Assembly (NCBI GenBank): GCA_964385825.1
Contig: CAYLPX010000001.1
Location: 271,959 to 335,958, forward strand
DNA: 64,000 nt
From: an uncultured Candidatus Saccharibacteria bacterium
Lineage (GTDB): Bacteria > Patescibacteriota > Minisyncoccia > Phycocordibacterales > JAKFXT01
Reading direction: 5' to 3'
Below the pieces are notes generated by a model. The model made no database searches. It worked only from the letters and a program-made list of their open reading frames with translations, and was not told the DNA's origin. Below, piece by piece: positions 34,203 to 52,146 of the stretch (positions are counted from its first letter, which is position 1; every line of letters starts with the position of its first letter). A program made the translations under genes and the position numbers.

Positions 34203-34205
34203 AAA

Positions 34206-34979: not shown

Positions 34980-34980
34980 A

Positions 34981-35961: not shown

Positions 35962-36418
35962 CCTTATTTCGAAGGAGGTCGTACGCCGTTGTTACATGAA
36001 AGAAGAAATTCGGATGCACATAAAAGCGTAAGTAGGTGTCACCCACAAGATGCATACCTGGGAAATACGGAATGGTTACTGTAATTGTCGCAGCATCCTT
36101 AAAATCTTCCGGTGAAAATGTCTTCAAATACTCAACTGTCTTATCAATACGTGCATAGAGCTCAGCAAAATTACTTTCGGTATCTTCGAACTTTGGTGCT
36201 TCCTTACCAGTGAGTCTTGCAGCGGCCCCTTTGGCATTGTCAGTTGCAACTTGCACCTGTTTTACGAGAGGAAACATATCTGGCGCAAAGCGAAGGGCAA
36301 GCATGTCAGTTTCAGGAATACCCTGCTCTTTGGCAAACGCTTCACCTTTTGCGAGAACCCCCTTTAGAGCAGTGAGTGTGTTGATAAATACAGGAACAGA
36401 AAAGTCATAGTAATTCAT
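35906..36418 (-). CDS. DUF1993 family protein
   Basis: 170 aa all-helical; DUF1993-like blocks (FINTLTALKGVL, TAYDLLR). Confidence 0.5.
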   Translation of the reverse strand: MNYYDFSVPVFINTLTALKGVLAKGEAFAKEQGIPETDMLALRFAPDMFPLVKQVQVATDNAKGAAARLTGKEAPKFEDTESNFAELYARIDKTVEYLKTFSPEDFKDAATITVTIPYFPGMHLVGDTYLRFYVHPNFFFHVTTAYDLLRNKGVQIGKADIAGNIPFIKD

Positions 36419-36532
36419 AAAATTATTATATTAAAGAATGGTTAAAGTAATCCATTTTCGCACACACCCTCCAGAATAACAAATCACTCAGAAGTTGCGA
36501 AAATCACACCATTAGTTAGTATAAAGCAATAT

Positions 36533-36913
36533 ATGTTTGAAAATTTAGGAACCAGTGATTTTGGAGACAACCCTGAAAAACAAGGGGTTCTTATTCATTC
36601 TGAGGAAAACGAAGGGGGTATAAACCCCGAGGTAATTATGGAGTTAAGTGGTGCTTGGAAAGAATTGCATGCAAAACTTGAGACAATGACTCCTGTCCAA
36701 AAAATGGAAAATCTGAATGAAACACTTGATGAATTAATCAGAATAGCAAGAACTTACATCACTCATGTTAACGGTGGCACTTTTCCAACCGGAGTCTACA
36801 CAACAACGAGAGACATGCTCGCGCACCTTGAAGGAGACGATGAGTCCACACTATTTAATGGACTTACAAAAACCTACGACGAAATACTAAGCCTGCTTGG
36901 CAAGAAAAAATAA
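36533..36913 (+). CDS. Hypothetical acidic protein
   Basis: 126-aa ORF. Confidence 0.4.
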   Translation: MFENLGTSDFGDNPEKQGVLIHSEENEGGINPEVIMELSGAWKELHAKLETMTPVQKMENLNETLDELIRIARTYITHVNGGTFPTGVYTTTRDMLAHLEGDDESTLFNGLTKTYDEILSLLGKKK

Positions 36914-36940
36914 AAAAGACCGCGCACTTCGTGCGCGGTC
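36913..36940 (-). terminator. Intrinsic terminator (gaccgcgcac-TTC-gtgcgcggtc) for the GC-rich gene 36957-37220
   Basis: 10-bp perfect stem; A6 on the plus side gives a T-run on the minus transcript. Confidence 0.75.
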
Positions 36941-36956
36941 ACTCGAGGATGGAAGC

Positions 36957-37220
36957 TCAGCGAATGAGCCTTGGCCTCCTCTTGCTGTCCCCGAACCCCT
37001 TGGCGGGGTCAAACTTGTGCTTGGGGTGGTCGTAGTACGGCTGGTGACTGCCAGCCTGCGCTACGTCACTAACCACCCCATCCTGTGCATGCTGGCGCGC
37101 CATTTTGGCGGCCACATCAACATGCCCCGCATCCTCCGGGTCAAAGGCCACGTAGGCCTGTCCCGGAAAATGGAACGCCTTAGGAGACGCATTCGCCCCC
37201 AACTTCTTTGATTCCCCCAT
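36957..37220 (-). CDS. Hypothetical small protein, GC-rich mini-island F
   Basis: AAGGAGG ribosome-binding site 6 nt upstream of ATG; GC-rich; own terminator. Confidence 0.5.
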   Translation of the reverse strand: MGESKKLGANASPKAFHFPGQAYVAFDPEDAGHVDVAAKMARQHAQDGVVSDVAQAGSHQPYYDHPKHKFDPAKGFGDSKRRPRLIR

Positions 37221-37359
37221 GGATCCCTCCTTGGAAAAGGGGTTAGAAAAAACGAAATGAGCCCTAAGCTCCGAAATATATTATATCATATATATACAAA
37301 AAAGCAAGTCATCACGACCTGCTCGGGAATTCAGAAAATCTCATTTCGCTAAGGTATTT

Positions 37360-37379
37360 GCGGAGACGGAGAGATTTGG
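37360..37379. repeat. Imperfect copy of a tRNA-Ser 3' end (gcggagacggagagatttgg) joined to a GGTCAGGAATATTTT motif
   Basis: 17/19 match to 37412-37430 (tRNA-Ser GGA) and to the Ser(CGA) 3' end; ggtcaggaatatttt also occurs at 4723-4737 as ggtcagggatatttt. Confidence 0.7.
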
Positions 37380-37413
37380 TCAGGAATATTTTAGGATCCC
37401 TCCCATACAGAGC

Positions 37414-37498
37414 GGAGGCGGCGAGATTTGAACTCGCGAAACCTTTCGGTTTACACGCTTTCCAAGCGTGCGCACTAGACCACTATGCGACGCCTCCG
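37414..37498 (-). tRNA. tRNA-Ser (anticodon GGA), long variable arm
   Basis: Acceptor GGAGGCG/CGCCTCC, D stem GCAT/GTGC, anticodon stem CACGC/GCGTG with loop TTGGAAA, variable arm TAAACCGAAAGGTTTC, T arm GCGAG-TTCAAAT-CTCGC. Confidence 0.8.
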
Positions 37499-37526
37499 CT
37501 CTGTAAAGGATTTGAAGAATCGTACT

Positions 37527-37600
37527 ATGCGCACTAGGTCACAGATAATTTTTTGCTAAAAATTTCTGCGACCCCGTCTCGGCTCGTCAGCCTCCGACTC
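37527..37600 (+). repeat. tRNA-associated GGTCAC element, copy E2
   Basis: ggtcacagataattttttgctaaaaatttctgcgaccccgtctcggctcgtcagcctccg is about 85% identical to E1; preceded by a scrambled copy of the tRNA-Ser D-arm region (actatgcgcactag). Confidence 0.7.
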
Positions 37601-37664
37601 TTCGGGTTTTACATTCAACCCGAAGCACTATACGACGTCTCCAGTCTGGCAAAGATAACAGAAA

Positions 37665-37692
37665 ATTAGAAATAAAAGAAGCCGCGCTTACG
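37665..37692 (-). terminator. Intrinsic terminator (gccgcgc-TTAC-gcgcggc) for the GC-rich gene 37716-38141
   Basis: GC stem with A-tract on the plus side. Confidence 0.75.
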
Positions 37693-37715
37693 CGCGGCCT
37701 TACCCTACCCGACTT

Positions 37716-38141
37716 TCAGCCGACAAACTTGCGAAGGTCGACCGTAGTTGCACGAATCGACGGCCTTCGGGAACCAAGCTGCCTCTTCGGCTTCACCTTG
37801 ATGGGAGGTGCCGGAACAGCTTTCCCGTCGAGTAAACTTGCAGAAAGCAGTGACATCGACCCACGCGGGAGCTGATCAAGGAACCGAGCAAACCATGGCT
37901 GCTTCATGTTCCACCGCCGCTCTTCCGCATCGATGATCTCGAGCACGGGATCGCGTGTCCCCAAAGCATCGCTCGTCACTGGGAGTTCGAGCCCCATGCT
38001 GTCCATCGCAACCAGAGGTTCCTCTGGCTCGTCCGCATCAGGAAGAACCACCGACACGTATCCATCCGGGAATCGGCTCGATACCCTGTTCCAGCGCCCG
38101 GTACTGCTGTTCCACACTTGATGCATGGGAATTCCCCCCAA
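37716..38141 (-). CDS. Hypothetical protein, GC-rich mini-island G
   Basis: GC-rich ORF with terminator; start MGGIP or MHQVW. Confidence 0.45.
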   Translation of the reverse strand: MGGIPMHQVWNSSTGRWNRVSSRFPDGYVSVVLPDADEPEEPLVAMDSMGLELPVTSDALGTRDPVLEIIDAEERRWNMKQPWFARFLDQLPRGSMSLLSASLLDGKAVPAPPIKVKPKRQLGSRRPSIRATTVDLRKFVG

Positions 38142-38230
38142 GACAAAGTACGGTTTAATTACGAAAAGATCGGCCTAAGCCTGCCTGATATTTAACCACT
38201 ATCGTGTAAGAAGTCAAAGCTTTTTGTTCA

Positions 38231-39145
38231 CTAACGACTGTCTACAAGGGCTGCGATACGCTCTTTGATAGGTGGGTGGGTACTAAAAAGTTTAGCGAAC
38301 CAAGATACTTCAGCCTTATCATCTTCATCCTCGCCAGTCCTGCCAAGTGGGTTCGAAATGAAAAGGTGCGCAGTCGCAGAGCTATGTTTTTGCATTGGTT
38401 GGCCATACTTCCCTATTTTTTGGAGTGCCGTTGCAAGTCCGTCAGGATAACGTGTCAAAAGTACACCGGACGCATCCGCCAAAAACTCTCGCTTACGGGA
38501 AATAGCTAGTTGAATCATGGTTGCGGCAAGCGGCGCCAAAATAGAAGCAATAATACCGAGAATGAAAAGTGCTGTTCCTGCTTTATTGTCCCTATCACTA
38601 TTCCCACCATAAAAAGATGCTCGACGGAATATGTCACAAATGATTGAAACAAAACCAACGAGCACCACCGCAACCGTACCGAGGAGCATGTCTCTGTTTC
38701 CAATATGTGAAAGCTCATGTGCTATAACCCCCTCAAGCTCCACTTTAGTCAAAAGCGGAAGAAGGCCAGTCGTTACACACACCACCGAGTGTTCTGGATC
38801 GCGGCCCGTAGCAAAAGCATTCGGTGCCGGATCTTCTACCACAAACACACGAGGCTTCGGAAGTCCTGCAGTGATAGCTAAGTTCTCAACAATATTATGT
38901 AAATCACGATACTCATTTGGATCTGCTTCATGTGCACCAGTCATCGCTAACACCAATGAGTCAGAGTACCAGTAAGAAGCAATGTTCATGACAATACTAA
39001 TAATGACTGCAATATAGAGAATAGAAGGATTACCATAAATAGCACTAAAGAGCCAGCCTAAAAGTATGACAATGATGAAAAACCCGCTCATCAGAAACCA
39101 GGTCTTCCGAATATTACTATCTTTATAGGTGTAAGCGGTAGCCAT
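38231..39145 (-). CDS. htpX: Zinc metalloprotease HtpX (M48)
   Basis: HELSHIGNRDM (HExxH); 4 TM helices. Confidence 0.9.
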   Translation of the reverse strand: MATAYTYKDSNIRKTWFLMSGFFIIVILLGWLFSAIYGNPSILYIAVIISIVMNIASYWYSDSLVLAMTGAHEADPNEYRDLHNIVENLAITAGLPKPRVFVVEDPAPNAFATGRDPEHSVVCVTTGLLPLLTKVELEGVIAHELSHIGNRDMLLGTVAVVLVGFVSIICDIFRRASFYGGNSDRDNKAGTALFILGIIASILAPLAATMIQLAISRKREFLADASGVLLTRYPDGLATALQKIGKYGQPMQKHSSATAHLFISNPLGRTGEDEDDKAEVSWFAKLFSTHPPIKERIAALVDSR

Positions 39146-39204
39146 ACATCAATCACATTTCTCAATACTGTTTGAGAAATTCAGTGTAGGGAGATTAAAA
39201 CTTC

Positions 39205-39756
39205 TTAGAACTTTACTTCAACAGGATTTTTGGCTGCCTGTTCATCAGCTCCAAGCTGGAAGAGTTCTGCCTTTTCAAAATGAAATGTAGAAGCAATAAG
39301 GTTACCGGGGAATTTCTCCATCGCAGTATTCTGCTCAAGAACGTTACCGTTGTAGAAACGACGAGCGGCTTGGATCTTGTTCTCAGTATCGGAAAGCTCT
39401 GTTTGAAGTCCGAGAAAATTCTGATTGGCCTTAAGTTCTGGATACGCTTCTGCGATAGCAAACACACTCTTTAAGGCACCAGCAAGCATGTTCTCTGCCT
39501 GACCCTTATCAGCTGCGCCTGTTGCGCTCATAGCACGACTGCGAGCTTCAGTTACTTTTTCAAATGCAGTGCTCTCATGAGTTGCATATCCCTTTACGGT
39601 ATTCACCAAGTTAGGAATAAGATCATAGCGACGCTTCAGTTGCACATCAATATCACTCCATGCCTCTTTGGTTCGATTAACAAGCGTTACGAAACGATTG
39701 TACATAGCAATAAGTACAAAGAGAAAAACAACAAGAATAATTCCAAAAAACATCAT
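39205..39756 (-). CDS. lemA: LemA family protein
   Basis: N-terminal TM; LemA blocks (RRYDLIPNLV, FYNG). Confidence 0.85.
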   Translation of the reverse strand: MMFFGIILVVFLFVLIAMYNRFVTLVNRTKEAWSDIDVQLKRRYDLIPNLVNTVKGYATHESTAFEKVTEARSRAMSATGAADKGQAENMLAGALKSVFAIAEAYPELKANQNFLGLQTELSDTENKIQAARRFYNGNVLEQNTAMEKFPGNLIASTFHFEKAELFQLGADEQAAKNPVEVKF

Positions 39757-39893
39757 AAATAAATTAGTTAGTATTTCTTAATATCTATATTATACAAGCT
39801 TTTTTATGTGTAGACAATAATACGAAAAACTTTACTTAGAAGCTCTATTGCTTATAGTTAAGGAGGCGTTATTTACTAACCCGGAGAATCATC

Positions 39894-40436
39894 ATGGAAA
39901 CGACACAAGCACTGAAAGTAGCAACTGTCGTTTTCCCTCTTCGGAAAACGGCAGATGGCACCGAGGAGGTTCTGCTCGGGGAAAAAACTAAGAAAATTGG
40001 TATTGGTTGCCCCACGGGACCAGGTGGCATGGTTAACGAAAACGAAACAATACGACAAGCGGCCGCCCGCGAGACCTTTGAAGAAACCGGCCTCATTGTG
40101 GCTCCAAACAGCCTACGGTATGTTGGGGTGATTACGTTCAATAATTACAAAACCACGGACACCGAGCCATTCCGTATTCGTGTTCACTTTTTCCTCGCCC
40201 CAGAATGGTCCGGTACTGTCATCGAAAGGGACGATGGCTTCAAAAACCTGATCTGGTACGAAGTGAATGATTTGCCTCTCAGTCGCATGATGGCGGCTGA
40301 CCCACACTTCGTACCACGAATGCTTGCTGGTGAGAAAGTAATTGGCTCTGCTCACTATCTCGGCGACCAACGTACGCTCTACCCAAACACCAACGTCTTT
40401 GCTCGCAGTGTCATTGGCGAGTTTGATGTGGAGTAA
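39894..40436 (+). CDS. NUDIX hydrolase
   Basis: Nudix box GGMVNENETIRQAAARETFEETGL. Confidence 0.8.
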   Translation: METTQALKVATVVFPLRKTADGTEEVLLGEKTKKIGIGCPTGPGGMVNENETIRQAAARETFEETGLIVAPNSLRYVGVITFNNYKTTDTEPFRIRVHFFLAPEWSGTVIERDDGFKNLIWYEVNDLPLSRMMAADPHFVPRMLAGEKVIGSAHYLGDQRTLYPNTNVFARSVIGEFDVE

Positions 40437-40451
40437 GGGTCCCACGGGAGC

Positions 40452-40483
40452 AAAAAGCCGACGCATCGCGCCGGCTTTTTTTA
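40452..40483 (+). terminator. Intrinsic terminator after the NUDIX gene
   Basis: aaagccgacgcatcgcgccggcttttttt. Confidence 0.7.
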
Positions 40484-40557
40484 TAATATACGGGGTATTG
40501 CTTTTTAATGGAAATATGTTATAAATTACCCCAGGACCACATGGCCAAGGAGGCCAA

Positions 40558-40741
40558 GATGAAAACTGTTCTGATTTTGGCACTGGTGGGGGTCATCTCC
40601 GCCTGTGCCGAACCGACCATGCGAAGCACGGTCACCCCCGTCACCGGGGAAAAGACCCCGGAGGGAGGAGTGCGGTTCAACCCTGCACAATCAAGCCCTC
40701 CACCCATCGTCGTCATCGGGGAGAAGGAGGCAAGGCGCTAG
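40558..40741 (+). CDS. Small lipoprotein (61 aa), GC-rich mini-island H
   Basis: AAGGAGG ribosome-binding site; MKTVLILALVGVISAC lipobox; Pro-rich tail; perfect terminator 40763-40795. Confidence 0.5.
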
Positions 40742-40762
40742 GGGAAGTAAAACCCTTCTCGC

Positions 40763-40795
40763 AAAAGGCCGATGCGCGTGCGCATCGGCCTTTTT
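40763..40795 (+). terminator. Intrinsic terminator (aggccgatgcgc-GT-gcgcatcggcct plus T5)
   Basis: 12-bp perfect stem. Confidence 0.8.
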
Positions 40796-40823
40796 ACTTT
40801 TTATATTTTCCCTCCCCCTACAT

Positions 40824-42473
40824 TTAATATCCCATTCCTCCCATTCCAGGATTTCCACCCTCTGCTTTCTCCTCCTTTGGTTCATCAGTAATAGCTACTT
40901 CCGTAGTGAGCATAATAGCGGCTGCAGAACAAGCGTTCTCAACCCCAGAGCGAGTTACTTTGACCGGATCTATAATCCCGGACGCAATCATATCGGGAAC
41001 CATTTCATCCATAGCCGCATCATATCCAGCATTCCCCTTAGCTTCCTTTACCTTCTCAACAATAACCGCGCCATCATCCTTACCCGCATTAATAGCAATC
41101 TGACGAAGTGGCATTTCAAGTGCTCGCAGTACTATCCCCACACCCACTTCAAACTCCTTAGCAAAACTTGTTCCCTCACTTTTTGGCATCTTACTTGCTA
41201 CTTTTTCAGCTGCCTTGATAAGAGCAACTCCACCACCAACTACAATCCCCTCTTCTATCGCGGCCTTAGTCGCATTAACAGCGTCCTCAATCTTAAGCTT
41301 AAGATACTTCATCTCGGTTTCAGTCGCCGCTCCAACTTTAATAACAGCCACACCCCCTGAGAGCTTTGCAATACGCTCATCTATCTTTTCAATATCATAT
41401 TTAGAAGTTGTCCCTTTCTTCTGGGTCTTAAGCGATGCAATACGGGCGTCAATATCTGAACGCTTACCCTTACCACCCACCACAATAGTATTGTCTTTAG
41501 TTGCAATCACTTTATTCGCACGACCGAGCATACTGATTTCTGCTTTCTCAAGAGTGATACCCGTCTCATCAGTTATCACTGTAGCCCCGATAGTTGTTGC
41601 GAGGTCCTGAAGTAATTCCTTTTTGCGATCACCATACCCTGGTGCCTTCACGGCCAAAATATTAAACGTACCGCGAATCTTATTTAGTACAAACGCGGTG
41701 AGAGCTTCACCTTCCACTTCTTCGGCAACAATCACAAGCTCCTTCTTGCCGGAGTTCGCGATTTGTTCAAGCAAAGGAAGTATTTCTTTAAGGGTAGAAA
41801 TCTTTTTGTCAGTAAGGAGTACATAGGCATCTTTGTAGACTGCTTCCATACGCTCCCCGTCAGTAACCATGTAGGCTGAAACGTATCCACGATCGAACTG
41901 TAACCCTTCGACAAACTCAGCCTCAACACCGAAAGAGTGTGATTCCTCAACTGTTACTACTCCATCCTTACCCACCTTCTCAATAGTGTCAGCAATAATA
42001 GTACCAATCTCGCGACTCTCAGCTGAGATGGTTGCTACCTGCATAATATCTTCCTTACCTTTAACTGGCTTAGCCATAGCTTTAAGAGCCTGAACTACTG
42101 CTTCGCTAGCCTTCTCAATACCCATACGGATACCCATAGCATTCACCCCCATGGCAGTTTGCTTCACACCCTCTTTTACAATCGCTTGCATGAGTACTGT
42201 TGCGGTAGTAGTACCATCTCCAGCTGCATCATTAGTTTTGTTGGCTACTTCTTTCGCAATTTCAGCACCCATATTCTCAAACTTATCTTTGAGCACAATT
42301 TCGCGAGCAATAGACACCCCGTCATTTGTGATAGTGGGAGCTCCGTATCCTTTATCAAACACCACATTACGCCCTCGAGGACCAATGGTTATTTTAACGG
42401 CATCAGCCACAGCATCCACTCCTTTCATAAGAGCTTCACGCGCCTTTTCGTGATAGAGAATTTGTTTTGCCAT
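40824..42473 (-). CDS. groEL: Chaperonin GroEL
   Basis: Full-length Hsp60 with a C-terminal GGM-type repeat tail. Confidence 0.97.
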   Translation of the reverse strand: MAKQILYHEKAREALMKGVDAVADAVKITIGPRGRNVVFDKGYGAPTITNDGVSIAREIVLKDKFENMGAEIAKEVANKTNDAAGDGTTTATVLMQAIVKEGVKQTAMGVNAMGIRMGIEKASEAVVQALKAMAKPVKGKEDIMQVATISAESREIGTIIADTIEKVGKDGVVTVEESHSFGVEAEFVEGLQFDRGYVSAYMVTDGERMEAVYKDAYVLLTDKKISTLKEILPLLEQIANSGKKELVIVAEEVEGEALTAFVLNKIRGTFNILAVKAPGYGDRKKELLQDLATTIGATVITDETGITLEKAEISMLGRANKVIATKDNTIVVGGKGKRSDIDARIASLKTQKKGTTSKYDIEKIDERIAKLSGGVAVIKVGAATETEMKYLKLKIEDAVNATKAAIEEGIVVGGGVALIKAAEKVASKMPKSEGTSFAKEFEVGVGIVLRALEMPLRQIAINAGKDDGAVIVEKVKEAKGNAGYDAAMDEMVPDMIASGIIDPVKVTRSGVENACSAAAIMLTTEVAITDEPKEEKAEGGNPGMGGMGY

Positions 42474-42492
42474 AAGTTTTTAAATTAAAAAA

Positions 42493-42879
42493 TTAAGAAT
42501 TGAGAATAGCGATGATTTCACTCTCACGGACAATAATATACTCCTCACCGCTCAGCGAAATTTTATCGCCCCACTGATAAAGCACGGTATCTCCCACAGA
42601 AACTGCAACTGCTATATGTGAACCGTGCTCATAGCGACCATTTCCAACAGCAACAACTTTGCCACGTTTGCCACCCATATCCTTATCAGCTGACTCAGGA
42701 AGTATGAACCCTGAAGCTGTAGTACGTACGGTTTCGATATCTGTGAGCTCTTTGAGAAGTACTCGATCATTAAGCGGGATAATGGGAGATACCGCATGTT
42801 TAGCAGTGACATTTTTTTTGTGAGAAACTACTTTCTTGCCACTCTTTTTTGCAACTGATTTCTTTGTTTTCTTGGCCAT
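42493..42879 (-). CDS. groES: Co-chaperonin GroES with a ~30-aa lysine-rich N-terminal extension
   Basis: Core IIPLNDRVLLKEL...GDTVLYQWGDKI; N-terminal MAKKTKKSVAKKSGKKVVSHKKNVTAKHA. Confidence 0.9.
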   Translation of the reverse strand: MAKKTKKSVAKKSGKKVVSHKKNVTAKHAVSPIIPLNDRVLLKELTDIETVRTTASGFILPESADKDMGGKRGKVVAVGNGRYEHGSHIAVAVSVGDTVLYQWGDKISLSGEEYIIVRESEIIAILNS

Positions 42880-43014
42880 ATATAAAAATGACAGCTAGTA
42901 ATTAAACTAACCTTCTATAGATATAGAGAGGTTCTAGTGCTGTGATTATAGAGTAAAAATACGCAAAATCCAGATATTGACATTTTTTAAAAAAATTATA
43001 TAAATCAAGAAGAA

Positions 43015-43281
43015 TTGTCCATCCCGAGGGAAAACATGATCCAACCATTTTGGCTTTACCTCCTTACCTTTGCGATTGGGATATGTGTTGCCCATATCGC
43101 AAGCCATTGCGAAAAAATGGCGATGAGTCCCGCCAGAAGAATGTTGGCGGAGGCTCGGGAGAAGAAGTACCCAACTCCCTCGATTTTCTGGCAAATCATG
43201 GCGGCCATTCTGGCTGCATGGGTAATGGACTATGCGGGGGAAATAACCGACTTTTACACACTCGGACCGCCGCCGTACTAA
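43015..43281 (+). CDS. Small membrane protein, GC-rich mini-island I
   Basis: GAGGGA ribosome-binding site; GC-rich; 38-bp terminator module downstream. Confidence 0.45.
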   Translation: MSIPRENMIQPFWLYLLTFAIGICVAHIASHCEKMAMSPARRMLAEAREKKYPTPSIFWQIMAAILAAWVMDYAGEITDFYTLGPPPY

Positions 43282-43287
43282 CCCCGT

Positions 43288-43325
43288 CCCCGCGAAGGCC
43301 GCCTTCGCGGGGCCTTTGTTTGTAT
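43288..43325 (+). terminator. 38-bp terminator module, copy 1 (ccccgcgaagg-CCGC-cttcgcgggg, then cctttgtttgtat)
   Basis: Identical to 43633-43670. Confidence 0.8.
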
Positions 43326-43382
43326 AAATAAAGGTTTTATTTTATTCTTCTAGCTAGAAGTTACCCACACAGGAGACACCTG

Positions 43383-43631
43383 ATGGACACCATTTTCAAT
43401 GTACTCACGGTTACGTGGCATTACACATGCCTCATACTGCCGTGGTGGATGATCGGCCTCGTGCCCATCATTCTCCCTATCCCAAACCCAACCCCAGGAA
43501 GGATCATTCTCGGGGAAAAGTGGTGGCATATCCCGAATGGAAAAGAGCTCCTCCTGGGACTCGTCCGCGGAGTCGCCCTTTTCGCCGGCCTCTGGCTGCT
43601 CATTTGGGTGCTCGCTCAGATCGCCAACTGA
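43383..43631 (+). CDS. Small Trp-rich membrane protein, GC-rich mini-island J
   Basis: AGGAGA ribosome-binding site; GC-rich; identical terminator module downstream. Confidence 0.45.
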   Translation: MDTIFNVLTVTWHYTCLILPWWMIGLVPIILPIPNPTPGRIILGEKWWHIPNGKELLLGLVRGVALFAGLWLLIWVLAQIAN

Positions 43632-43632
43632 C

Positions 43633-43670
43633 CCCCGCGAAGGCCGCCTTCGCGGGGCCTTTGTTTGTAT
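43633..43670 (+). terminator. 38-bp terminator module, copy 2
   Basis: Identical to 43288-43325. Confidence 0.8.
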
Positions 43671-43691
43671 TTTTGACTCTTTTTTGGTCTT

Positions 43692-43940
43692 TTGTTATAC
43701 TGTTTTCCAATGCAATTACTATCTACGGTTATGTCGTATGTACAAGTCGTACTAGCGGTACTCCTTATTGGAGGCATACTACTTCAACAACGAGGCGCAG
43801 GTCTCGGTGGTGCTTTTGGCGCTGACAGTACATTTGGCTATAACACAAGACGGGGTGCAGAAAAAATTATCTTTGAAGCTACCATTATTCTTTCGGTCCT
43901 TTTTGTCGCAAGCGCCGTTATTACGCTTATTATCAAATAG
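43692..43940 (+). CDS. secG: Preprotein translocase subunit SecG
   Basis: VLAVLLIGGILLQQRGAGLGGAFG is the SecG signature (LLQ..G.GLG..FG); two TM helices. Confidence 0.7.
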   Translation: MLYCFPMQLLSTVMSYVQVVLAVLLIGGILLQQRGAGLGGAFGADSTFGYNTRRGAEKIIFEATIILSVLFVASAVITLIIK

Positions 43941-44076
43941 TCTTCCCTTCCTAGTCTTTTAGACTACTGTTTCTATACTACCGGTCTCCCGCAAGCTCTC
44001 TTTAATACAACTAAGAGTCCTGATGCTTGCCCCTCTTTAACAGGAAGACTTCTCGTTATTAAACGCTCTCCATACT

Positions 44077-45849
44077 GTGAACCCATTTGACCCTTCTTTA
44101 AAAAAACATAGTCCGCTTAAACCACTCCGCGTAACTGGTATTGTAAAACGAGCTCTCGGACACTTTTCTCTCTTTGAGCGCAGTGTATTTTACATACTAG
44201 CCCTTATTATGGGTATCACTGCACTTACCCTACTTTTACGAGTAAACAACCTCTTCACTACTCCTATCCCTATGCTAGGAGGCGAACTACGAGAGGGTGT
44301 TATTGGTTCTGCGCGATTCATTAACCCTGTGCTTGCAGTGTCTGATTCCGATCGTGACCTCACAACACTTATTTATTCAGGCCTCACACGCTCACTCCCT
44401 GACGGTTCCATCGTTCCAGATTTGGCAAGTAGCTATTCTATAGAAGATAACGGTAAGACCTATGATTTCAAATTAAAAGATGCAGTCACCTTCCACGACG
44501 GCAAGCCCGTTACTGCAAGTGATGTTGAATATACTATTCAAAAGATCCAAGATCCTGCAATCAAAAGTCCGAAACGTCCTAATTGGGATGGGGTTACTGT
44601 TGAGAAAGTAAATGAAAAGGAAATTAAGTTTCACTTAAAGCAAGCCTACGCACCTTTTCTCCTCAACACCAATATTGGAATCCTGCCAAAACATATTTGG
44701 AAAGATGCTACTGCTGATGAATTCCCACTATCACTCTACAACTTTGAGCCTATAGGCTCAGGTCCCTATAGCGTAACTTCAATTGACCACAACAGTGCCG
44801 GCCTACCACTTGCTTACACGCTTTCACCATTTAAAAACTACGCGCTCGGCAGCCCTCACATTAAAACCATTACTTTTTCCTTCTTTCCGAACGAGCAAAG
44901 TCTCTTTGATGCCTATACTAAAAAGACTATAGATAGCATTCATAGTGTTAGTCCCGATAAGTTAGATGCGCTAAAGCGTACTGATACTCATATAGAAACA
45001 GCGACCCTTCCTCGTGTCTTTGCTATTTTCTTCAACCAGAATGAAAACCCGGTATTCACCGATATCAATGTTCGCAAGGCGCTAGATATGGTTACCCCTA
45101 AACAAGAAATCGTGAACAAGGTTTTCAATGGATATGGCACAGTTAACAATGGTCCATTACCACCTGAACTTGCTACATCTTCTACTCCAACCATTTCCCT
45201 AACCCCAGACTTAACACTTAACAATGCACGAGCGCTGCTTGCAAAATCTGGCTGGGTCTACAACGAGCAAACTCATGTAGTAGAAAAAACAATTAAAACC
45301 AAAAAGAAAACCGAAACCCAAACACTTTCTTTCTCACTCTCAACTGCTGATACCCCTGAACTTAAAGAAACTGCCCAGCTACTCAAAGCAGCCTGGGAAA
45401 AACTAGGGGCTACGGTTGATGTAAAAGTTTTTGAAGGAGGAGATCTCAACCAAAACATTATTCGCCCGCGCAAATACGACACACTTCTTTTTGGTGAAGT
45501 AGTTGGGCGAGACTTAGACCTCTATGCTTTCTGGCACTCAAGCCAGCGCAACGACCCCGGACTTAATGTTGCCATGTACACCAATGCCAAAACCGATAAA
45601 ATGCTTGAACTTGCTAGAACCCTAGAAACAGATAGCGATCGCATTGCGCAGTATCAAGCCTTTGCTATAGAACTAACGAAAGAAACTCCTGCCATATTCC
45701 TCTACTCTCCACAGTTCATCTACCTTTTACCTAACACTATTAATGATGTAACTCTCAAAAACATAACCATACCTTCAGAGCGGTTTGCGAATGTATATGA
45801 GTGGTATATAGACACAGAACGTGTATGGAAAGTATTTGCTAAGCATTAA
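44077..45849 (+). CDS. ABC transporter substrate-binding protein, family 5 (peptide/nickel type)
   Basis: 590 aa with an N-terminal TM anchor; SBP_bac_5-like blocks. Confidence 0.75.
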   Translation: MNPFDPSLKKHSPLKPLRVTGIVKRALGHFSLFERSVFYILALIMGITALTLLLRVNNLFTTPIPMLGGELREGVIGSARFINPVLAVSDSDRDLTTLIYSGLTRSLPDGSIVPDLASSYSIEDNGKTYDFKLKDAVTFHDGKPVTASDVEYTIQKIQDPAIKSPKRPNWDGVTVEKVNEKEIKFHLKQAYAPFLLNTNIGILPKHIWKDATADEFPLSLYNFEPIGSGPYSVTSIDHNSAGLPLAYTLSPFKNYALGSPHIKTITFSFFPNEQSLFDAYTKKTIDSIHSVSPDKLDALKRTDTHIETATLPRVFAIFFNQNENPVFTDINVRKALDMVTPKQEIVNKVFNGYGTVNNGPLPPELATSSTPTISLTPDLTLNNARALLAKSGWVYNEQTHVVEKTIKTKKKTETQTLSFSLSTADTPELKETAQLLKAAWEKLGATVDVKVFEGGDLNQNIIRPRKYDTLLFGEVVGRDLDLYAFWHSSQRNDPGLNVAMYTNAKTDKMLELARTLETDSDRIAQYQAFAIELTKETPAIFLYSPQFIYLLPNTINDVTLKNITIPSERFANVYEWYIDTERVWKVFAKH

Positions 45850-45896
45850 AAAGATTACAAAAATTATTATTAAACACGATAGATAACTATTACTTT

Positions 45897-47864
45897 ATGA
45901 ATGATCAACAAAACAATTCTGGAACTCCGCACAGTCCAAGGTCTCCTCGTACACCACGAAGCGCCTCACATGGAAGAACACCACACACACGAAGTGCTGC
46001 GGATCACGCTGGCGCTTCACACACTGCGCGTCCACCACGAACAGGAAGCCGTGGAGGGGCCCGCCAAGGTGGGGCCGGTGGACGAGGCCGATCTCGTTCT
46101 CGCTTCCCAGAGCGAGCACCATTTTCTCCACGCGAGGATGCTTCCAAAATCACCACCCCAACCGCCCTCAAGGATATGCTACCAGCACCAGACGCTGATA
46201 CGTTCCGCATTATTCCACTTGGTGGAGTAGAGGAAGTAGGTCGCAACATGACCGTTGTTGAACTTCATAACGATATCTTTGTGCTTGATTGCGGTTTCCA
46301 ATTCACCCCAGAGAGTGATGCTCCTGGTATTGATTACATTCTGCCCAACACCAAATACCTTGAGGATCGCAAAGAACGCATAAAAGGAGTAATCATTACC
46401 CACGGACACTTGGATCACATTGGAGGCATTCCTTACATCATGGACCGTATTGGTAACCCACCTATTTATACCCGCTACCTCACCAGTCTTATGATTTTGA
46501 AGCGTAATGCTGAATTCCCTCACCTCTCACCAAGCAACATTATTGTGGTAGAACCAGGTCAAAAAGTAACTGCGGGAGATACGCCTATTTCCTTCTTCCC
46601 AGTTACTCACTCCATACCGGACGCTATGGGCGTAGTTATTGAAACCAAGCATGGCAACATCGTCTTCACGGGAGACTTAAAACTAGATCACGAGAATGGT
46701 ATACCAACTGAAGAAGAAGCTAAGCGTTGGGACAATCTCAATAAGCAAAAAAATGTGTTCTTCGCTGCAGACTCTACCAACACCGAGCGCCCTGGGTTCT
46801 CTATTACTGAGCGTCAGGTATATGACACCCTAGAAGATATCATTAAAAATACTAAGGGTCGCCTCATCATTGGAACATTCGCTTCGCAGTTCGAACGCAT
46901 GATCAAAATCATCGAAGTTGCAGCTAAGTATAACCGCAAGATTGTAACTGAGGGACGAAGTATTCGCACCAACATTGAAATCGCCAAAGAAGGTGGAATC
47001 CTAAATGTTGATGAAAGTATCTTTATTACTTCAGATCAAATACCGAACTACCCACCAGATCGTATACTCATTCTAGCGACTGGTGCGCAGGGAGAGGAGT
47101 TCGCGGCACTCAATCGTATTGCCAGCAAGAAAGACAAGAATATTTTCTTTACTGAGCAGGACACTGTTGTGCTTTCCTCCTCAGTTATCCCAGGAAACGA
47201 AATTTCTGTGCAGAAACTCAAAGACAATCTCTACCGTCACAATCTAAAAATCATTCACTACCGTGTGTCGGATGTGCACTCTACAGGACATGGAAATGCT
47301 GGGGAACTTGTCTGGATCAACCAAAAGGTTAACGCTAAGTTCTTCATGCCTTCCTATGGTTTCCGCTCTATGACCACTTGCCACGCTCGAGCAGTGATTG
47401 ATGCTGGTTTTCCTAAAGAAAACGTGGTGCTCGCTGACAACGGTACTATTATTGAAATTAAAAACGGCACGGAAATGCAAGTCCTCAAAGAAAAAGCTCC
47501 TTCAACTCCACTTATGGTTGATGGCTTCTCTATTGGAGACATGCAGGAAGTTGTCATCCGAGACCGCCAAACCCTCTCCAAAGATGGTATGTTCGTCATT
47601 ATTGGTTCAGTGAACCCTCGTACAGGAAAACTACGTAAGTCACCTGACATTATTTCCCGCGGCTTCGTATATCTACGAGAATCACAAGAACTTTTGAACC
47701 AAACGAGACTAATCGTTAAGAAAACTATTGAAGATACTACTGTTGGCATGAATCCAATTAATCTTGAGTACACCAAAAATGCGCTCGTTGATAATGTATC
47801 TCGTTTTCTATTCCAAAAAACTAACAAACGTCCGATTGTTATTCCCGTTTTAATCGGCCTATAA
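45897..47864 (+). CDS. rnj: Ribonuclease J (metallo-beta-lactamase / beta-CASP); an alternative start at 46176 gives the canonical N-terminus
   Basis: IIPLGGVEEVGRNMTVVE, HGHLDHIG, beta-CASP motifs; the 93-codon Arg/Ser/Gly-rich 5' extension lies in a 250-bp GC-rich block. Confidence 0.85.
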   Translation: MNDQQNNSGTPHSPRSPRTPRSASHGRTPHTRSAADHAGASHTARPPRTGSRGGARQGGAGGRGRSRSRFPERAPFSPREDASKITTPTALKDMLPAPDADTFRIIPLGGVEEVGRNMTVVELHNDIFVLDCGFQFTPESDAPGIDYILPNTKYLEDRKERIKGVIITHGHLDHIGGIPYIMDRIGNPPIYTRYLTSLMILKRNAEFPHLSPSNIIVVEPGQKVTAGDTPISFFPVTHSIPDAMGVVIETKHGNIVFTGDLKLDHENGIPTEEEAKRWDNLNKQKNVFFAADSTNTERPGFSITERQVYDTLEDIIKNTKGRLIIGTFASQFERMIKIIEVAAKYNRKIVTEGRSIRTNIEIAKEGGILNVDESIFITSDQIPNYPPDRILILATGAQGEEFAALNRIASKKDKNIFFTEQDTVVLSSSVIPGNEISVQKLKDNLYRHNLKIIHYRVSDVHSTGHGNAGELVWINQKVNAKFFMPSYGFRSMTTCHARAVIDAGFPKENVVLADNGTIIEIKNGTEMQVLKEKAPSTPLMVDGFSIGDMQEVVIRDRQTLSKDGMFVIIGSVNPRTGKLRKSPDIISRGFVYLRESQELLNQTRLIVKKTIEDTTVGMNPINLEYTKNALVDNVSRFLFQKTNKRPIVIPVLIGL

Positions 47865-47876
47865 GTGGCTTATACA

Positions 47877-47907
47877 AAAAACTGCATCAACCTGATGCAG
47901 TTTTTTG
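47877..47907 (+). terminator. Intrinsic terminator after rnj (aaaaaactgcatca-ACC-tgatgcagtttttt)
   Basis: 8-bp stem with flanking A6/T6. Confidence 0.75.
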
Positions 47908-47927
47908 TTATACTTACTCTATACTCT

Positions 47928-49118
47928 ATGAAGCACCTCGTCACACTGACCCAAGAACATATCATGGTTATCCTCCTTTGCCTTGCCAACCTTTTTCTCT
48001 CTTTTCACTACTTTCTCACCATCTATATCAATTCTTCCTTTCTAAGTAAACTCCTGTTTAGTAACCAAAATTTTGTTGTTACATTCCTCTACAGTGTCGC
48101 TTCGCTCGTCACCTGCCTTTTCTTTCTCTTTGCAACACATTTTTTGACACGCCTTGGAGCCTATCGTCTCTCGCTCATTATTACCACTATTGATTTACTA
48201 GCGGTAAATATTTTAAGTCTCACCCACAACCTCGCTCTAGTGCTGCCATTTCTTTTCCTCCACCTCACCAGTATTCCACTTATCTTTTTCCTTTTTGATA
48301 TTTTCCTTGAGCACTTTTCACCCCGCCTACACACCACTGGTTCAACCCGTGGAGTATTCCTCACTGTAGGAAATATCGCCCTAGTGCTTTCTCCTTTTTT
48401 CATCTCACTCCTTGGCATAGCCCAGAATGACTTCTCGTACATTTACAAACTTTCTGGTTTGTTCCTATTCCCACTTCTTTTTATTTTCCTTTTCTCTTTT
48501 AGGAACTTTAAAGATCCCGTGTACCCACACAGCTCCGTACACGGAGAACTTTACCGAATGCTGCGCAATAAGAATATTCGTGGAGCTGTGTTTGCTAATT
48601 TTATTTTGCAGATTTTCTTTTCAGTCATGGTTATCTACTTACCGCTCTATCTCATAGACACCATCGGCTTTTCATGGAGTGAGTTTGGACTGATACTATC
48701 GATCGCACTCTTACCTTTTGCATTATTTGAACTTCCTATCGGTCTTTTAGCGGATAGAAAATATGGGGAACAAGAAATGATGAGTTTGGGGTTCGTCGTA
48801 CTTGCGGTCGCTGTTACTCTTCTTTCTTTTATTAGTGTTAAGAGTTTGGCGATTTTTGCAACAGTGCTCTTTGCAACCCGTGTTGGAGCAGCCCTTATCG
48901 AAACAACTTCTGAAAGCTACTTTTTTAAAAAAACGGAAGATGCCGACGCTGATTTAACTGGTATATTCCGCATGACCCGTCCAGTTTCTTACCTTATAGG
49001 GCCACTTCTGGGACTACCAATTGTTCTATTTTTTTCCTATCATTATCTCTTTATAGCAGTTGGGCTAATCATGCTAACAGGTCTTTATTTCTCTTTTTCT
49101 ATAGAAGATACTCGCTAA
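47928..49118 (+). CDS. MFS-type transporter
   Basis: About 12 TM helices; start moved to the Met downstream of the terminator hairpin. Confidence 0.55.
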   Translation: MKHLVTLTQEHIMVILLCLANLFLSFHYFLTIYINSSFLSKLLFSNQNFVVTFLYSVASLVTCLFFLFATHFLTRLGAYRLSLIITTIDLLAVNILSLTHNLALVLPFLFLHLTSIPLIFFLFDIFLEHFSPRLHTTGSTRGVFLTVGNIALVLSPFFISLLGIAQNDFSYIYKLSGLFLFPLLFIFLFSFRNFKDPVYPHSSVHGELYRMLRNKNIRGAVFANFILQIFFSVMVIYLPLYLIDTIGFSWSEFGLILSIALLPFALFELPIGLLADRKYGEQEMMSLGFVVLAVAVTLLSFISVKSLAIFATVLFATRVGAALIETTSESYFFKKTEDADADLTGIFRMTRPVSYLIGPLLGLPIVLFFSYHYLFIAVGLIMLTGLYFSFSIEDTR

Positions 49119-49948
49119 AGCATAAACTTGCTTTCCTTCTTTTGTATGAGCCCCTCTTGAAGAAGTTCTTTGCATATAGTTTCAGTATCAAACTTAGCAA
49201 CTCCTATTTTTTCTTTAACCTGCTTATATAAAGTTCGTGGCGCTAAAGCACCCCCCAAAAGAAGTTTGGGTACAAGTCCCCTCACTTCCCGCCTTGACCC
49301 CTTAAAGCTTCCTTGCTTTTGATATACCCTACTTTGCTTATTCTTATTTCCAACCGCCTTCTTAAGGTGAGCTCCGAAATCCATCAATAATCCATACCAC
49401 TCCTTAAAACCACTTTTAGGTAAAAGTTTGGTGAGCACCTTCTCAAGCTCCCCTTCAGGTACATTGTGTTTGGATGAAAAAAAGTAATGAATTAAAACCG
49501 TACGAATATTGGTCTCAAGTACCACCATCTTTTCATTGTAGGCAAAAGTGAGTACTGCTGCAGCAGTGTAGTGACCAACCCCCGGCAACGTTCGCAAAGC
49601 TTCATACGTTGAAGGTGTATCACCTTTATATACTTCAACAATCCTCTTTGCTGCTTCATGCAAAAATCGAGCTCTGCGATTATAGCCAAGACCACTCCAA
49701 AGCGTAAGTACATCCTTAAGCGGTGCCCGTGCTAATGCATGTACTGTTTTAAAACGCTTTAAGAAATTTTTATAAAATGGAACTACCCGATCTGCTTGTG
49801 TTTGCTGAAGCATGATTTCAGAAACCAAAATATGATACGGATCATGAGTATCCCTCCATGGAAATGAGCGGTAACCTGTTTTTTTAAATCGTAGCAGCTC
49901 CTTCTTAAAAATCGCTTTCTGTTTTTCTATTTGCATACCTGCAAACAT
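49115..49948 (-). CDS. HhH-GPD base-excision DNA glycosylase (MutY / endonuclease III family)
   Basis: HILVSEIMLQQTQ...GLGYNRRA and an HhH-GPD loop (LPGVGHYTAAAVL). Confidence 0.75.
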   Translation of the reverse strand: MFAGMQIEKQKAIFKKELLRFKKTGYRSFPWRDTHDPYHILVSEIMLQQTQADRVVPFYKNFLKRFKTVHALARAPLKDVLTLWSGLGYNRRARFLHEAAKRIVEVYKGDTPSTYEALRTLPGVGHYTAAAVLTFAYNEKMVVLETNIRTVLIHYFFSSKHNVPEGELEKVLTKLLPKSGFKEWYGLLMDFGAHLKKAVGNKNKQSRVYQKQGSFKGSRREVRGLVPKLLLGGALAPRTLYKQVKEKIGVAKFDTETICKELLQEGLIQKKESKFML

Positions 49949-49950
49949 AA

Positions 49951-49985
49951 AACCCCTCCCTACACTGAGGGAGGGGTTTTATGTT
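49951..49985 (-). terminator. Intrinsic terminator (aaaacccctccc-tacact-gggaggggtttt)
   Basis: 12-bp stem; abuts the annotated start of the glycosylase gene. Confidence 0.7.
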
Positions 49986-50627
49986 TTAGTTTGTAGTAAA
50001 AGTTGCCTCTATGAGACCCTTATCATTTTTTATAGGAGCATCCTCTGAAGTATCAAATCCACGACTTCCAGTATCCTCATAGAGTACAGCATGATACTTT
50101 GCGCCAGCGACAGTTCCGCGTAATAGTTCAACTTCTCCAAGATGAATCCCTGGCTCAAAACGAGCAGCACCAAGCACATTACCGAGTTCTCCATTTTTAT
50201 CCTCATGAATTGCCACCCAACCAGGTACAGAAAGTGTTACCATAGTGACTTCTGCTGTAGTGCCAGCCTTTTGATCGTTAGCAGCAATAGCATTAGTGCC
50301 TGAAACACTTACAGGCTCTTTGCGGACCTTCGGAGTAGGAGCGGTGACTACTTCTTTGGTAACTTCTTCTGTCTTTGCTGTATCTACTCCCATAGTAGCT
50401 GGTGTAGAAGTTGCACTCTCTAGCATTTCTGCACTGTCCATATCTTCTGTAACTACAACCTTTTGATTGTCTCCTTTTGATAACCACATACCAAACGCCC
50501 CAACAACTGCACCAATAAGAAAGGCTGTAACTAGTTTACCCATACCAGTACTAGTTGAAGCCATATTCTTTTTTGCTTCAAGTAATTTTTTCTGATCAGC
50601 GTTGAGGAGATTTTTCGGCGTTTCCAT
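49986..50627 (-). CDS. Hypothetical membrane-anchored protein
   Basis: TM helix then a Thr/Ala-rich linker and a C-terminal domain; start at the internal Met. Confidence 0.4.
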   Translation of the reverse strand: METPKNLLNADQKKLLEAKKNMASTSTGMGKLVTAFLIGAVVGAFGMWLSKGDNQKVVVTEDMDSAEMLESATSTPATMGVDTAKTEEVTKEVVTAPTPKVRKEPVSVSGTNAIAANDQKAGTTAEVTMVTLSVPGWVAIHEDKNGELGNVLGAARFEPGIHLGEVELLRGTVAGAKYHAVLYEDTGSRGFDTSEDAPIKNDKGLIEATFTTN

Positions 50628-50745
50628 GAAATATAGGTTACGTAAGTAATGCCATAAGTGTAACAAGTGTACTTTTCTCGTCAAAATAGCCAAAATAGAG
50701 CAAATATTACGTAATATTCACTCAAAATCCCTATTTTTATAGATT

Positions 50746-50952
50746 TTAAATACCAGTTACTCCTCCCGTTAAACCACTTAGTGCTTTCGGTAGAAAAACC
50801 ATAGTACCAAGTAGAGGTAATAGTGTGAGAAGGGCAGTAATGATAAGCACCCAGAAAAAATACTTTCGCGTTTTTTCAGCTGATTCTTTAACTTCGTCCA
50901 GCTTACTATCAAGCTGTGCTAACTTCACCAAAATTTCTTGTTCCTTGTCCAT
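50746..50952 (-). CDS. Hypothetical small membrane protein
   Basis: 68 aa; coiled-coil then a TM helix. Confidence 0.35.
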   Translation of the reverse strand: MDKEQEILVKLAQLDSKLDEVKESAEKTRKYFFWVLIITALLTLLPLLGTMVFLPKALSGLTGGVTGI

Positions 50953-50965
50953 ACGCTTAAGTATA

Positions 50966-51676: not shown

Positions 51677-51771
51677 TTCTCTAAGTATACGCCTTTAAGA
51701 AAACTAATTGAAACTTTGACTTTTCTAAAAAATGCTGCATAATCCACATTAGACAAACCACGGAGAGAATC

Positions 51772-52146
51772 ATGCAAGTTTACAAGGCCTTTGTAGTTGA
51801 AGGTGGGGTGCTGAAGAGCCTTTCGGCGACTGGCCCCCTAGAGCACATCTACAAATTCAGGGAATGGAGTCAATTGCTCCCCTGGCAGGAACAACATGGG
51901 CTTGGCTTCTTTGCCTTCGAAGATCTGGAGGCCGCTCACCATGCGCTCGGAAAGGGGGGTTACATTGCAGTATGCGAAACTACCGAGCTCCTGTCGCGCC
52001 CCAGAGCACTCCTTTCGCAGGAACAACATCCGCCAAAGGATCTATCTGTGGGGCGAATCCTCACATACCTTGACCCTTGCATCGTGGAGATGGTTGAGCC
52101 CGGCACTATTTGGTGCAGGGATATCCGCCCACTCAACTGGGCTTAA
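51772..52146 (+). CDS. Hypothetical protein, GC-rich mini-island K
   Basis: GGAGAG ribosome-binding site; GC-rich; terminator 52147-52205. Confidence 0.45.
   Translation: MQVYKAFVVEGGVLKSLSATGPLEHIYKFREWSQLLPWQEQHGLGFFAFEDLEAAHHALGKGGYIAVCETTELLSRPRALLSQEQHPPKDLSVGRILTYLDPCIVEMVEPGTIWCRDIRPLNWA

Follow-up and report, generated by a model that had tools for sequence, protein, structure and literature searches.

The subject of this work is a 64-kb window (64,000 nucleotides, positions 271,959 to 335,958 of contig CAYLPX010000001.1, assembly GCA_964385825.1) from the genome of an uncultured bacterium, which on the evidence of its sequence belongs to the Paceibacteria (Patescibacteria, or Candidate Phyla Radiation, CPR). 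In this window, two divergent gene clusters, groEL-groES on the minus strand and secG-SBP-RNase J on the plus strand, are separated by a gap that holds two small genes, ORF1 and ORF2. Each of them is followed by an exact copy of the same 38-nucleotide (nt) plus-strand sequence, CCCCGCGAAGGCCGCCTTCGCGGGGCCTTTGTTTGTAT (Table 1). We call this gap the slot, and each gene with its leader and its terminator a unit.

Table 1. Position of the features discussed in the text, in window coordinates
Feature	Position	Strand	Remarks
groEL	40824-42473	-	JGI Pfam PF00118
groES (Cpn10)	42493..42879	-	Left core border of the slot; ORF list, JGI Pfam PF00166
Putative promoter, unit 1	42977..43004	+	TTGACA (42977-42982), 16 nt, TATAAA (42999-43004); read from the sequence
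ORF1	43036..43281	+	ATG to stop, 81 amino acids (aa), GAGGG Shine-Dalgarno 8 nt upstream, G+C content at third codon positions (GC3) 0.59
Terminator copy 1	43288..43325	+	Stem 43288-43298 / 43302-43312, loop CCG, tail CCTTTGTTTGTAT
Spacer	43326..43382	+	57 nt, AT-rich; AGGAG ribosome-binding site of ORF2
ORF2	43383..43631	+	82 aa, two hydrophobic helices, GC3 0.70
Terminator copy 2	43633..43670	+	Identical to copy 1; tail abuts the secG promoter
secG promoter	43673..43701	+	TTGACT, 17 nt, TG-TATACT; 10/12 matches, extended -10; conserved in L005
secG	43710..43940	+	Right core border of the slot; Pfam PF03840, JGI call; alternative ATG 43731
ORFa	23494-23640		48 aa, GC3 0.65, no family match; terminator 23665-23700
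ORFb	23781-24041		86 aa, GC3 0.71, no family match; terminator 24056-24089

Two small genes with an identical 3' module

The two copies of the 38-mer lie where the original prediction had reported them, 6 nt after the stop codon of ORF1 and 1 nt after that of ORF2, and they are the only two in the window: no further copy was detected there when up to 3 mismatches were allowed, and none is expected by chance (100 shuffles). The identity spans the 38 nt from the first stem base to ...GTAT and extends no further on either side, the flanking sequences being unrelated. The module consists of an 11-bp stem (9 G-C pairs), a 3-nt loop and a T-rich tail, CCTTTGTTTG, and is predicted to fold at -21.8 kcal/mol (z = -3.8 relative to shuffled sequences). 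Both copies thus combine a G+C-rich stem-loop and a U/T-rich tract at the 3' end of a unit, and the 38-mer is, by its anatomy, a strong intrinsic (Rho-independent) terminator, as had been proposed. Termination would be expected in vivo at both hairpins. Five JGI samples, the assembly of which was independent of that of the window, yielded at least six contigs with the identical arrangement, which is therefore not a one-off assembly artefact.

Other identities of the repeat were considered and rejected. A known RNA family was ruled out, as no Rfam covariance model matched positions 42880-43740 at or above its gathering score, sub-threshold matches (E up to 10) being confined to the hairpin. A CRISPR (clustered regularly interspaced short palindromic repeats) array, which consists of at least three regular repeats with 25-50-nt spacers, is incompatible with two copies lying 345 nt apart on either side of a coding gene, and a DNA uptake sequence was discarded because no 12-mer other than those of the module is over-represented. 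A 30-mer of the module gave no match in the genome_contigs, viral_contigs and metagenome_contigs collections, which do not include the source genome. The degenerate hairpin CCCCGCG N8-14 CGCGGGGCCTTTG gave five single matches in viral contigs (62-72% GC) and more than 120 in metagenomes, nearly all of them single generic terminators in contigs of 55-75% GC; none of these metagenome contigs carries relatives of ORF2, of secG or of the 168-aa gene described below.

ORF1 and ORF2 fit their initial description as small, GC-rich and unrelated membrane-protein genes. Their GC3 values contrast with those of 17 core genes of the window (0.33-0.45), and each encodes two hydrophobic segments. The cargo presumably consists of small membrane proteins. 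No similarity between the two proteins is detectable (BLASTP E = 0.16 over 9 residues; shuffle test z = 0.38, p = 0.34), which rules out simple paralogy. The original prediction had named a tandem duplication, with the module found only here and the two ORFs being diverged paralogues, as the outcome that would undo it. Within the 64 kb the module is indeed found only here, but the ORFs are not diverged paralogues, and this objection is therefore inapplicable.

Neither ORF matches Pfam, PHROG or PADLOC, and the same is true of two genes found in the slot of relatives, ORFx and a 177-aa gene (see below). Among 5.8 billion proteins, ORF1 retrieved only itself and is thus an orphan, although it is weakly similar to ORFx, which occupies the same position in a related locus (FW...LAAW.M.Y; shuffle p = 0.017). 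ORF2 has no relative outside this genus among the 5.8 billion proteins or among 1.84 billion representatives; in the former it retrieved only itself or a fragment, and an exhaustive HMMER search of the latter returned only two matches, the sole homolog being the ortholog of L035 type (L followed by a number designates a related locus). In the lineage comprising L005, L035 and L177, ORF2 is conserved at 55% aa identity without indels, and its start, stop and length are kept relative to L005 and L035 at 61% nt identity (39% divergence). The differences distribute as 33/17/46 over the three codon positions, and the ratio of nonsynonymous to synonymous divergence (dN/dS) is 0.15-0.21. These values indicate that ORF2 is a real gene under purifying selection. 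As its dS (1.7-2.3) is similar to that of groEL (1.86) and its frame is kept, ORF2 has resided in the slot for a long time and was inherited vertically.

Units 1 and 2, measured from the start codon to the last base of the terminator, are 290 and 288 nt long, respectively. The putative promoter of unit 1 was missed by the promoter scan because position 6 of its -10 hexamer is A; alignments show homology of this region with the promoter that L005 and L034 have in the first slot position. No convincing sigma-70 promoter was found in the spacer between the two units, and this spacer has no homolog in any of the fetched loci except same-strain contigs. It contains a 14-bp perfect palindrome, CTTCTAGCTAGAAG (43347-43360), without counterpart in relatives, which may be a regulator-binding site. 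No recombinase (Phage_integrase included), transposase or phage domain was detected in the scanned main ORFs of at least 110 aa in the 64-kb window, nor in the JGI Pfam calls over 33383-53150.

The slot in related lineages

Relatives at this locus, all of them CPR metagenome-assembled genomes, were found through the downstream SBP_bac_5 protein. The order groEL-groES, gap, secG-SBP is kept in many Paceibacteria, with a gap ranging from 139 to 1849 nt. Four loci (L040, L019, L014 and L012) have no cargo in the gap, while L179 carries a ClpP-like gene with a different terminator and four others (L011, L016, L018 and L021) carry other genes. The 224-nt "empty" gap of L040 (3777-4000, read on the minus strand) keeps a TTGACA box and, between this box and the secG promoter, a GC-rich hairpin, which is imperfect, followed by a T-rich run; it may represent a promoter-terminator pair without an intervening gene.

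Two of the relatives carry a terminator pair of their own. L005 is the closest species-level relative of the window (GroEL 94% and SBP 81% aa identity), and its slot reads promoter, ORFx (76 aa), ORF2 ortholog (82 aa, 55% identity), terminator, promoter, 168-aa GC-rich gene, terminator, secG. The two terminators are identical over exactly 34 nt, CCCCGCGCAGCCGCCTGCGCGGGGCCTTTGTTTT. They differ from those of the window by compensatory changes in the inner stem (CCCCGCGAAGG..CCTTCGCGGGG in the window, CCCCGCGCAG..CTGCGCGGGG in L005), the tail being the same. In a third lineage, L038 (GroES 68%), the slot reads 177-aa gene, terminator, promoter, 146-aa HTH-like gene, terminator, secG, and the two genes, which are unrelated to each other, end in the same 24 nt, CCGCCGCGCGCAAGCGCGGCTTTT. 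The added units of both L005 and L038 carry TTGACA promoters. The exact repeat ends 13, 10 and 4 nt past the stem in the window, L005 and L038, respectively. Sub-threshold matches link the L005 168-aa gene to NTP_transf_2 (E = 0.016) and the L038 146-aa gene to HTH_3 and a PHROG repressor; searches of viral contigs, PLSDB plasmids and INPHARED phages with the 168-aa protein gave no match.

Among the 97 terminators predicted in all the Patescibacteria loci fetched, identical pairs occur only in this slot, in the window, L005 and L038. Identity within an array combined with difference between lineages is therefore a property of this slot. The original prediction had viewed the terminator as a portable module travelling with genes. 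The comparison does not bear this out: each lineage has its own version (38, 34 and 24 nt), common to its whole array, and the terminator thus tracks the locus and the genome rather than the cargo. The best reading is that the terminator belongs to the locus and the lineage.

Presence, absence and movement of units

Three loci, L035 and L178 (JGI) and L177 (a 19.9-kb Logan contig), are 91-99% identical to L005 at the nucleotide level and contain ORFx, ORF2, a single terminator and secG. What they lack relative to L005 is exactly a 663-bp unit, composed of a spacer, a promoter, the 168-aa gene and one terminator. The same gene also occurs at another position. In L034 (GroES 90% identical to the window), the 168-aa gene and its leader lie directly beside the groES-side promoter region, and the homology between the L034 and L005 units begins a few bases upstream of the -35 box (z = 21). 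The coding parts of these two units share about 95% nt identity, versus about 81% for groEL between the same lineages, and their positions differ. The unit has therefore moved between lineages and positions. Within L005, the promoter and leader of the 168-aa unit are weakly similar to those of the first unit (z = 3.0). The cassette-like assembly of the locus suggested by the original prediction is thus borne out by the different cargo of relatives, by a unit present or absent in near-identical strains, and by the same unit at two positions.

Homologous recombination is frequent among these strains, as shown by the mosaic identity of L177 and L005 (88-100% per 200 nt) and by the unusual similarity of secG between the window and L005. 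The latter region, secG with its promoter (window 43642-43940, L005 5553-5871), displays 91-92% nt identity and a dS of 0.31, versus 81% and 1.86 for groEL and 60-80% identity for the SBP gene, which suggests a recent recombination tract between the window species and L005, ending at the terminator. A breakpoint at the module in the comparison of L177 with L005 (91.7% identity to the left, 98.2% to the right) was also considered and was dropped, as the 200-nt profile is that of a general mosaic. The L035 species shares samples with the window species.

In JGI sample 3300045348, two contigs of the window species have unrelated sequence at one end, joined to the locus in the middle of ORF2 in one case (L046 1-88, joined at window position 43500) and inside groES in the other (L176 1-291, joined at 42635). 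Either the ends of these contigs are chimeric, or a subpopulation carries real rearrangements.

Origin of the terminator pairs

We consider it probable, though far from certain, that the gap is a small slot for accessory genes with the 38-mer as its intrinsic terminator, and that moron-like units (see below) are stacked there in a recombination hotspot. The units would be largely self-contained, each consisting of a leader or promoter, a small, lineage-specific, GC-rich gene and a terminator, and strains would carry differing cargo. The right border would be fixed, made up of the terminator, the secG promoter and secG, with the terminator insulating secG from read-through. DNA from a related strain would recombine homologously on the secG/terminator side and join illegitimately just behind the resident terminator, the only place where a junction would spare both the resident gene and the secG promoter. 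Such an addition would leave two copies of the terminator of the lineage, and these direct repeats of 24-38 nt could then recombine or slip, resulting in precise deletion of a unit and a fast turnover of the array.

Under this explanation the terminator copies are identical because they are young, i.e., were copied recently, and conversion between diverged terminators is unlikely, as the flanks differ right up to the stem. Since the repeat ends at different distances past the stem in the three lineages, junctions limited by selection, which must keep the U-tract and spare the promoter, fit better than a fixed cleavage site. Both the recombination route and the direction of each event, gain or loss, are what we infer from these patterns. 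Thus, of the original prediction, the cassette-like assembly stands, while a terminator travelling with its cargo does not.

Several points weigh against this explanation. Products of the process are seen, whereas the event that gave rise to the first terminator-unit-terminator arrangement was not observed. Unit 2 of the window has no recognisable promoter and is thus not clearly autonomous. The arrangement in the window could also have arisen by insertion of a terminator copy and a spacer into a bicistronic ORFx-ORF2 operon (the similarity of ORF1 and ORFx has p = 0.017); replacement of the first gene by ORF1, terminator and spacer, or addition of ORF2 with a promoter which has since decayed, are other possible histories. 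In L034, the sequence read does not include the terminator that follows the 168-aa gene, and the search for further copies and for recombinases covered 64 kb of the genome. Finally, a 1-kb Logan contig of the window species, L048, shows ORF1, terminator and secG without the ORF2 unit, and is the only contig of this species to do so. Assuming that Logan contigs are built with k = 31, a 38-nt repeat could collapse at low coverage, and two other Logan contigs begin exactly 30 nt (k-1) before the repeat end. As evidence for loss of the ORF2 unit, L048 is only suggestive, as it may be an assembly collapse.

An older tandem duplication of a promoter-gene-terminator unit, followed by gene replacement or runaway divergence, while conversion or selection kept the terminators identical (concerted evolution), would account for the nearly equal size of the two units and for two proteins of 81-82 aa with two helices each. 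The weak resemblance of the leaders in L005 agrees with it, and two terminators elsewhere in the window (23494-24089, see below), 85% alike, look as an aged duplicate would. We regard this history as unlikely. ORF1 and ORF2 have no sequence similarity, the dissimilarity of the flanks up to the stem leaves no homology from which conversion could start, and identity at 38 of 38 positions is incompatible with complete divergence of everything else. Moreover, the duplicate in L005 is demonstrably young, being polymorphic among strains that are 91-99% identical, and ORF2, which diverged in step with groEL, is an old resident rather than a recent copy of ORF1. It is harder still to believe that the GC-rich segments are structured non-coding RNAs, or remnants, with terminators of their own, or that the repeat arose in assembly. 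In AT-rich CPR genomes, islands of high GC content frequently turn out to be RNAs, and no homolog of ORF1 was found anywhere, but Rfam matches up to E = 10 are restricted to the hairpin, and ORF2 kept its frame, length and start over 39% nt divergence with the codon-position bias and low dN/dS given above. Both ORFs have a Shine-Dalgarno sequence, encode two hydrophobic helices and are richer in G+C at third than at first and second codon positions, and an assembly error would not be expected to recur in at least six contigs of five JGI assemblies.

Alternatively, a dedicated cassette-recombination system could use the hairpin as its attachment site, with mobilisation in trans by an enzyme whose gene lies elsewhere. 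Such a system would be integron-like, or would rely on a tyrosine or serine recombinase that has a 9-bp inverted repeat, spaced by 6-7 bp, as its target, and units would be excised as circles with one hairpin and re-inserted at a hairpin. The form of the array, an ORF with a 3' palindrome, repeated, is that expected of such a system. The boundaries of the repeat match the hairpin module in three lineages, and its sequence is uniform in each genome and varies from lineage to lineage, as is the case with the attC sites of sedentary chromosomal integrons. In addition, the 168-aa unit is precisely present or absent and occupies two positions, and the window contains short exact repeats of tRNA 3' ends which resemble integration scars. 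Opposed to this are the absence of an integrase or recombinase domain in the 64-kb window, the absence of GTTRRRY and RYYYAAC core sites, the shortness of the module (just 24-38 nt) and its perfect hairpin without extrahelical bases, and the variable distance (13, 10 or 4 nt) between stem and repeat end. The 38-mer is also absent from the rest of the window, the left neighbour of the L034 unit is the groES-side promoter region and not a hairpin, and the units carry promoter and leader sequences. A dedicated system therefore seems quite improbable to us. We give slightly less credence to its most specific form, an integron-independent cassette system of Patescibacteria in which the terminator hairpin doubles as the recombination site and circles re-insert before secG, and perhaps at other loci, through a recombinase encoded outside the 64 kb or through the Xer or RecA of the host. 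If true, a dedicated recombination mechanism would amount to a new kind of cassette system.

Related patterns elsewhere in the window

The window contains two compositional classes of genes, core genes (GC3 0.33-0.45) and small ORFs without Pfam match (0.59-0.73). About 12 of the latter, including ORF1 and ORF2, were counted, and many have a strong terminator of their own. These small ORFs are grouped in discrete GC-rich islands, which lie at 9545-10282, 13964-14703, 29270-29740, 36880-37255, 37663-38185, 40272-40822, 51782-52219 and 53264-53809.

A slot-like architecture is found at 23494-24089, between lepA and murJ, where two hydrophobic ORFs (ORFa and ORFb, Table 1) are each followed by a related terminator. 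These terminators are 85% alike, tails included, and a third relative (79%) follows the RNase P RNA (28831-28868). This region may be an aged version of the same process. Behind the ORFb terminator and before the end of murJ lies a 48-nt palindrome (24114-24161) without spacer, the 24-nt arms of which are 96% complementary (TGAACGTGACGTCTATTCACGCTA / TAGCGTAAATAGACGTCACGTTCA); it could be an operator or a bidirectional terminator.

Exact direct repeats lie beside tRNA genes at 19171-19211 / 19324-19364 (41 nt), 20623-20643 / 20766-20786 (21 nt) and 4682-4712 / 4781-4811 (31 nt), with a spacing of 99-153 nt. The 41-mer and the 21-mer contain the last 19-21 nt of tRNA-Phe and tRNA-Gly, and further fragments resembling tRNA ends are present at about 19283-19297 and 19980-20010. 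These repeats look like scars of the attachment (att) sites of integrative elements, although the enclosed DNA is far too short for an element. The hairpins that follow tRNA-Arg (20044-20088) and tRNA-Gly (20717-20761) are 71% alike, with compensatory changes (CATAAGCAAAGCAGTTTGCTTAT versus CACAGACAAAGCAGTTTGTCTGT), and are another case of related 3'-end modules behind different genes.

Downstream of the slot, a GC-rich, low-complexity segment rich in Arg, Pro, Gly and Ser (45897-46199; G+C content 0.72 at second and 0.35 at third codon positions) can be read as an extension of the RNase J ORF by about 100 aa. JGI instead calls RNase J at 562 aa, together with a 75-aa gene on the other strand, whereas the RNase J of relatives is called at 655-700 aa.

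Significance

Genomes of CPR bacteria are tiny and usually called streamlined, yet they are full of small lineage-specific genes. The locus described here offers a view of small-gene turnover at base-pair resolution, in a fixed slot between two essential operons. A conserved promoter and leader mark one of its borders and a lineage-specific terminator the other. Single-gene units would be stacked there, would pass from one co-occurring species to another and, by way of the terminator repeats, would be lost again. Should the pattern prove general, exactly duplicated terminators could serve as a cheap signature of very recent gene gain in uncultured bacteria, and as a natural "landing pad" design for the engineering of such organisms.

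Comparison with known systems

Integrons possess a tyrosine recombinase, IntI, with an adjacent attI site and a promoter, Pc. Their attC sites are imperfect palindromes of 57-141 nt with R'', L'', L' and R' boxes (RYYYAAC ... GTTRRRY) and extrahelical bases, and in sedentary chromosomal integrons these sites are homogeneous within a genome and different between lineages. The slot resembles integron arrays in its tandem small and mostly orphan ORFs, each followed by a palindromic repeat, in the likeness of these repeats within a genome and their difference between lineages, and in the gain, loss and reshuffling of units. Unlike them, it has no IntI, attI or Pc within 64 kb and no R'/R'' core sites, its hairpin is perfect and measures 24-38 nt, its units carry a promoter and a leader, there are just two or three of them, and the repeat doubles as a canonical intrinsic terminator. 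No GTTRRRY motif was found in 43201-43720, and the only RYYYAAC there lies inside ORF2. An integron was thus ruled out on both counts, no attC core site and no IntI-type integrase in the 64-kb window, in line with the initial impression that neither an integrase nor an attC-type structure was evident.

Group IIC introns and insertion sequences that target repetitive extragenic palindromes are mobile elements directed to terminator or palindromic hairpins. The insertion point directly 3' of an intrinsic-terminator hairpin is reminiscent of them, but the slot contains no intron RNA, reverse transcriptase or transposase, the inserted DNA being an ordinary gene unit.

A functional parallel is provided by phage morons, i.e., independent units located between conserved genes, with atypical GC content, a promoter and a terminator of their own, accessory or unknown cargo, and horizontal spread (Cumby et al. 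2012, PMC3594210). This description applies to the slot units of L005 and L038. In the window, each of the two units ends in a terminator and unit 1 has a plausible promoter (TTGACA-16-TATAAA), while no sigma-70-like match precedes unit 2. Composition (GC3 0.59-0.70 versus 0.33-0.45) and presence/absence agree as well, the slot content being variable and the 168-aa unit polymorphic. The slot differs from morons in that it lies in a core chromosomal region (groES / secG) of a CPR bacterium without prophage genes around, in that its units are stacked in tandem with an exactly identical terminator, and in that unit 2 of the window is without recognisable promoter.

The slot can also be compared with chromosomal hotspots of horizontal gene transfer between conserved core genes and with homology-facilitated illegitimate recombination. 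Like such hotspots, the slot displays variable cargo between fixed core flanks, which are mosaic in identity, and additive insertion into it would be anchored by homology on one side. It differs from them by its tiny size, with single genes of 0.3-0.7 kb, and by its borders, as its own terminator (and, loosely, its promoter and leader) forms the repeated borders and gives rise to exact direct repeats, an arrangement of which we found no prior description in the literature searched. The locus is thus best filed not as a new mobile element or a new class, but as a very small chromosomal hotspot of gene flux with its own terminator as repeated border.

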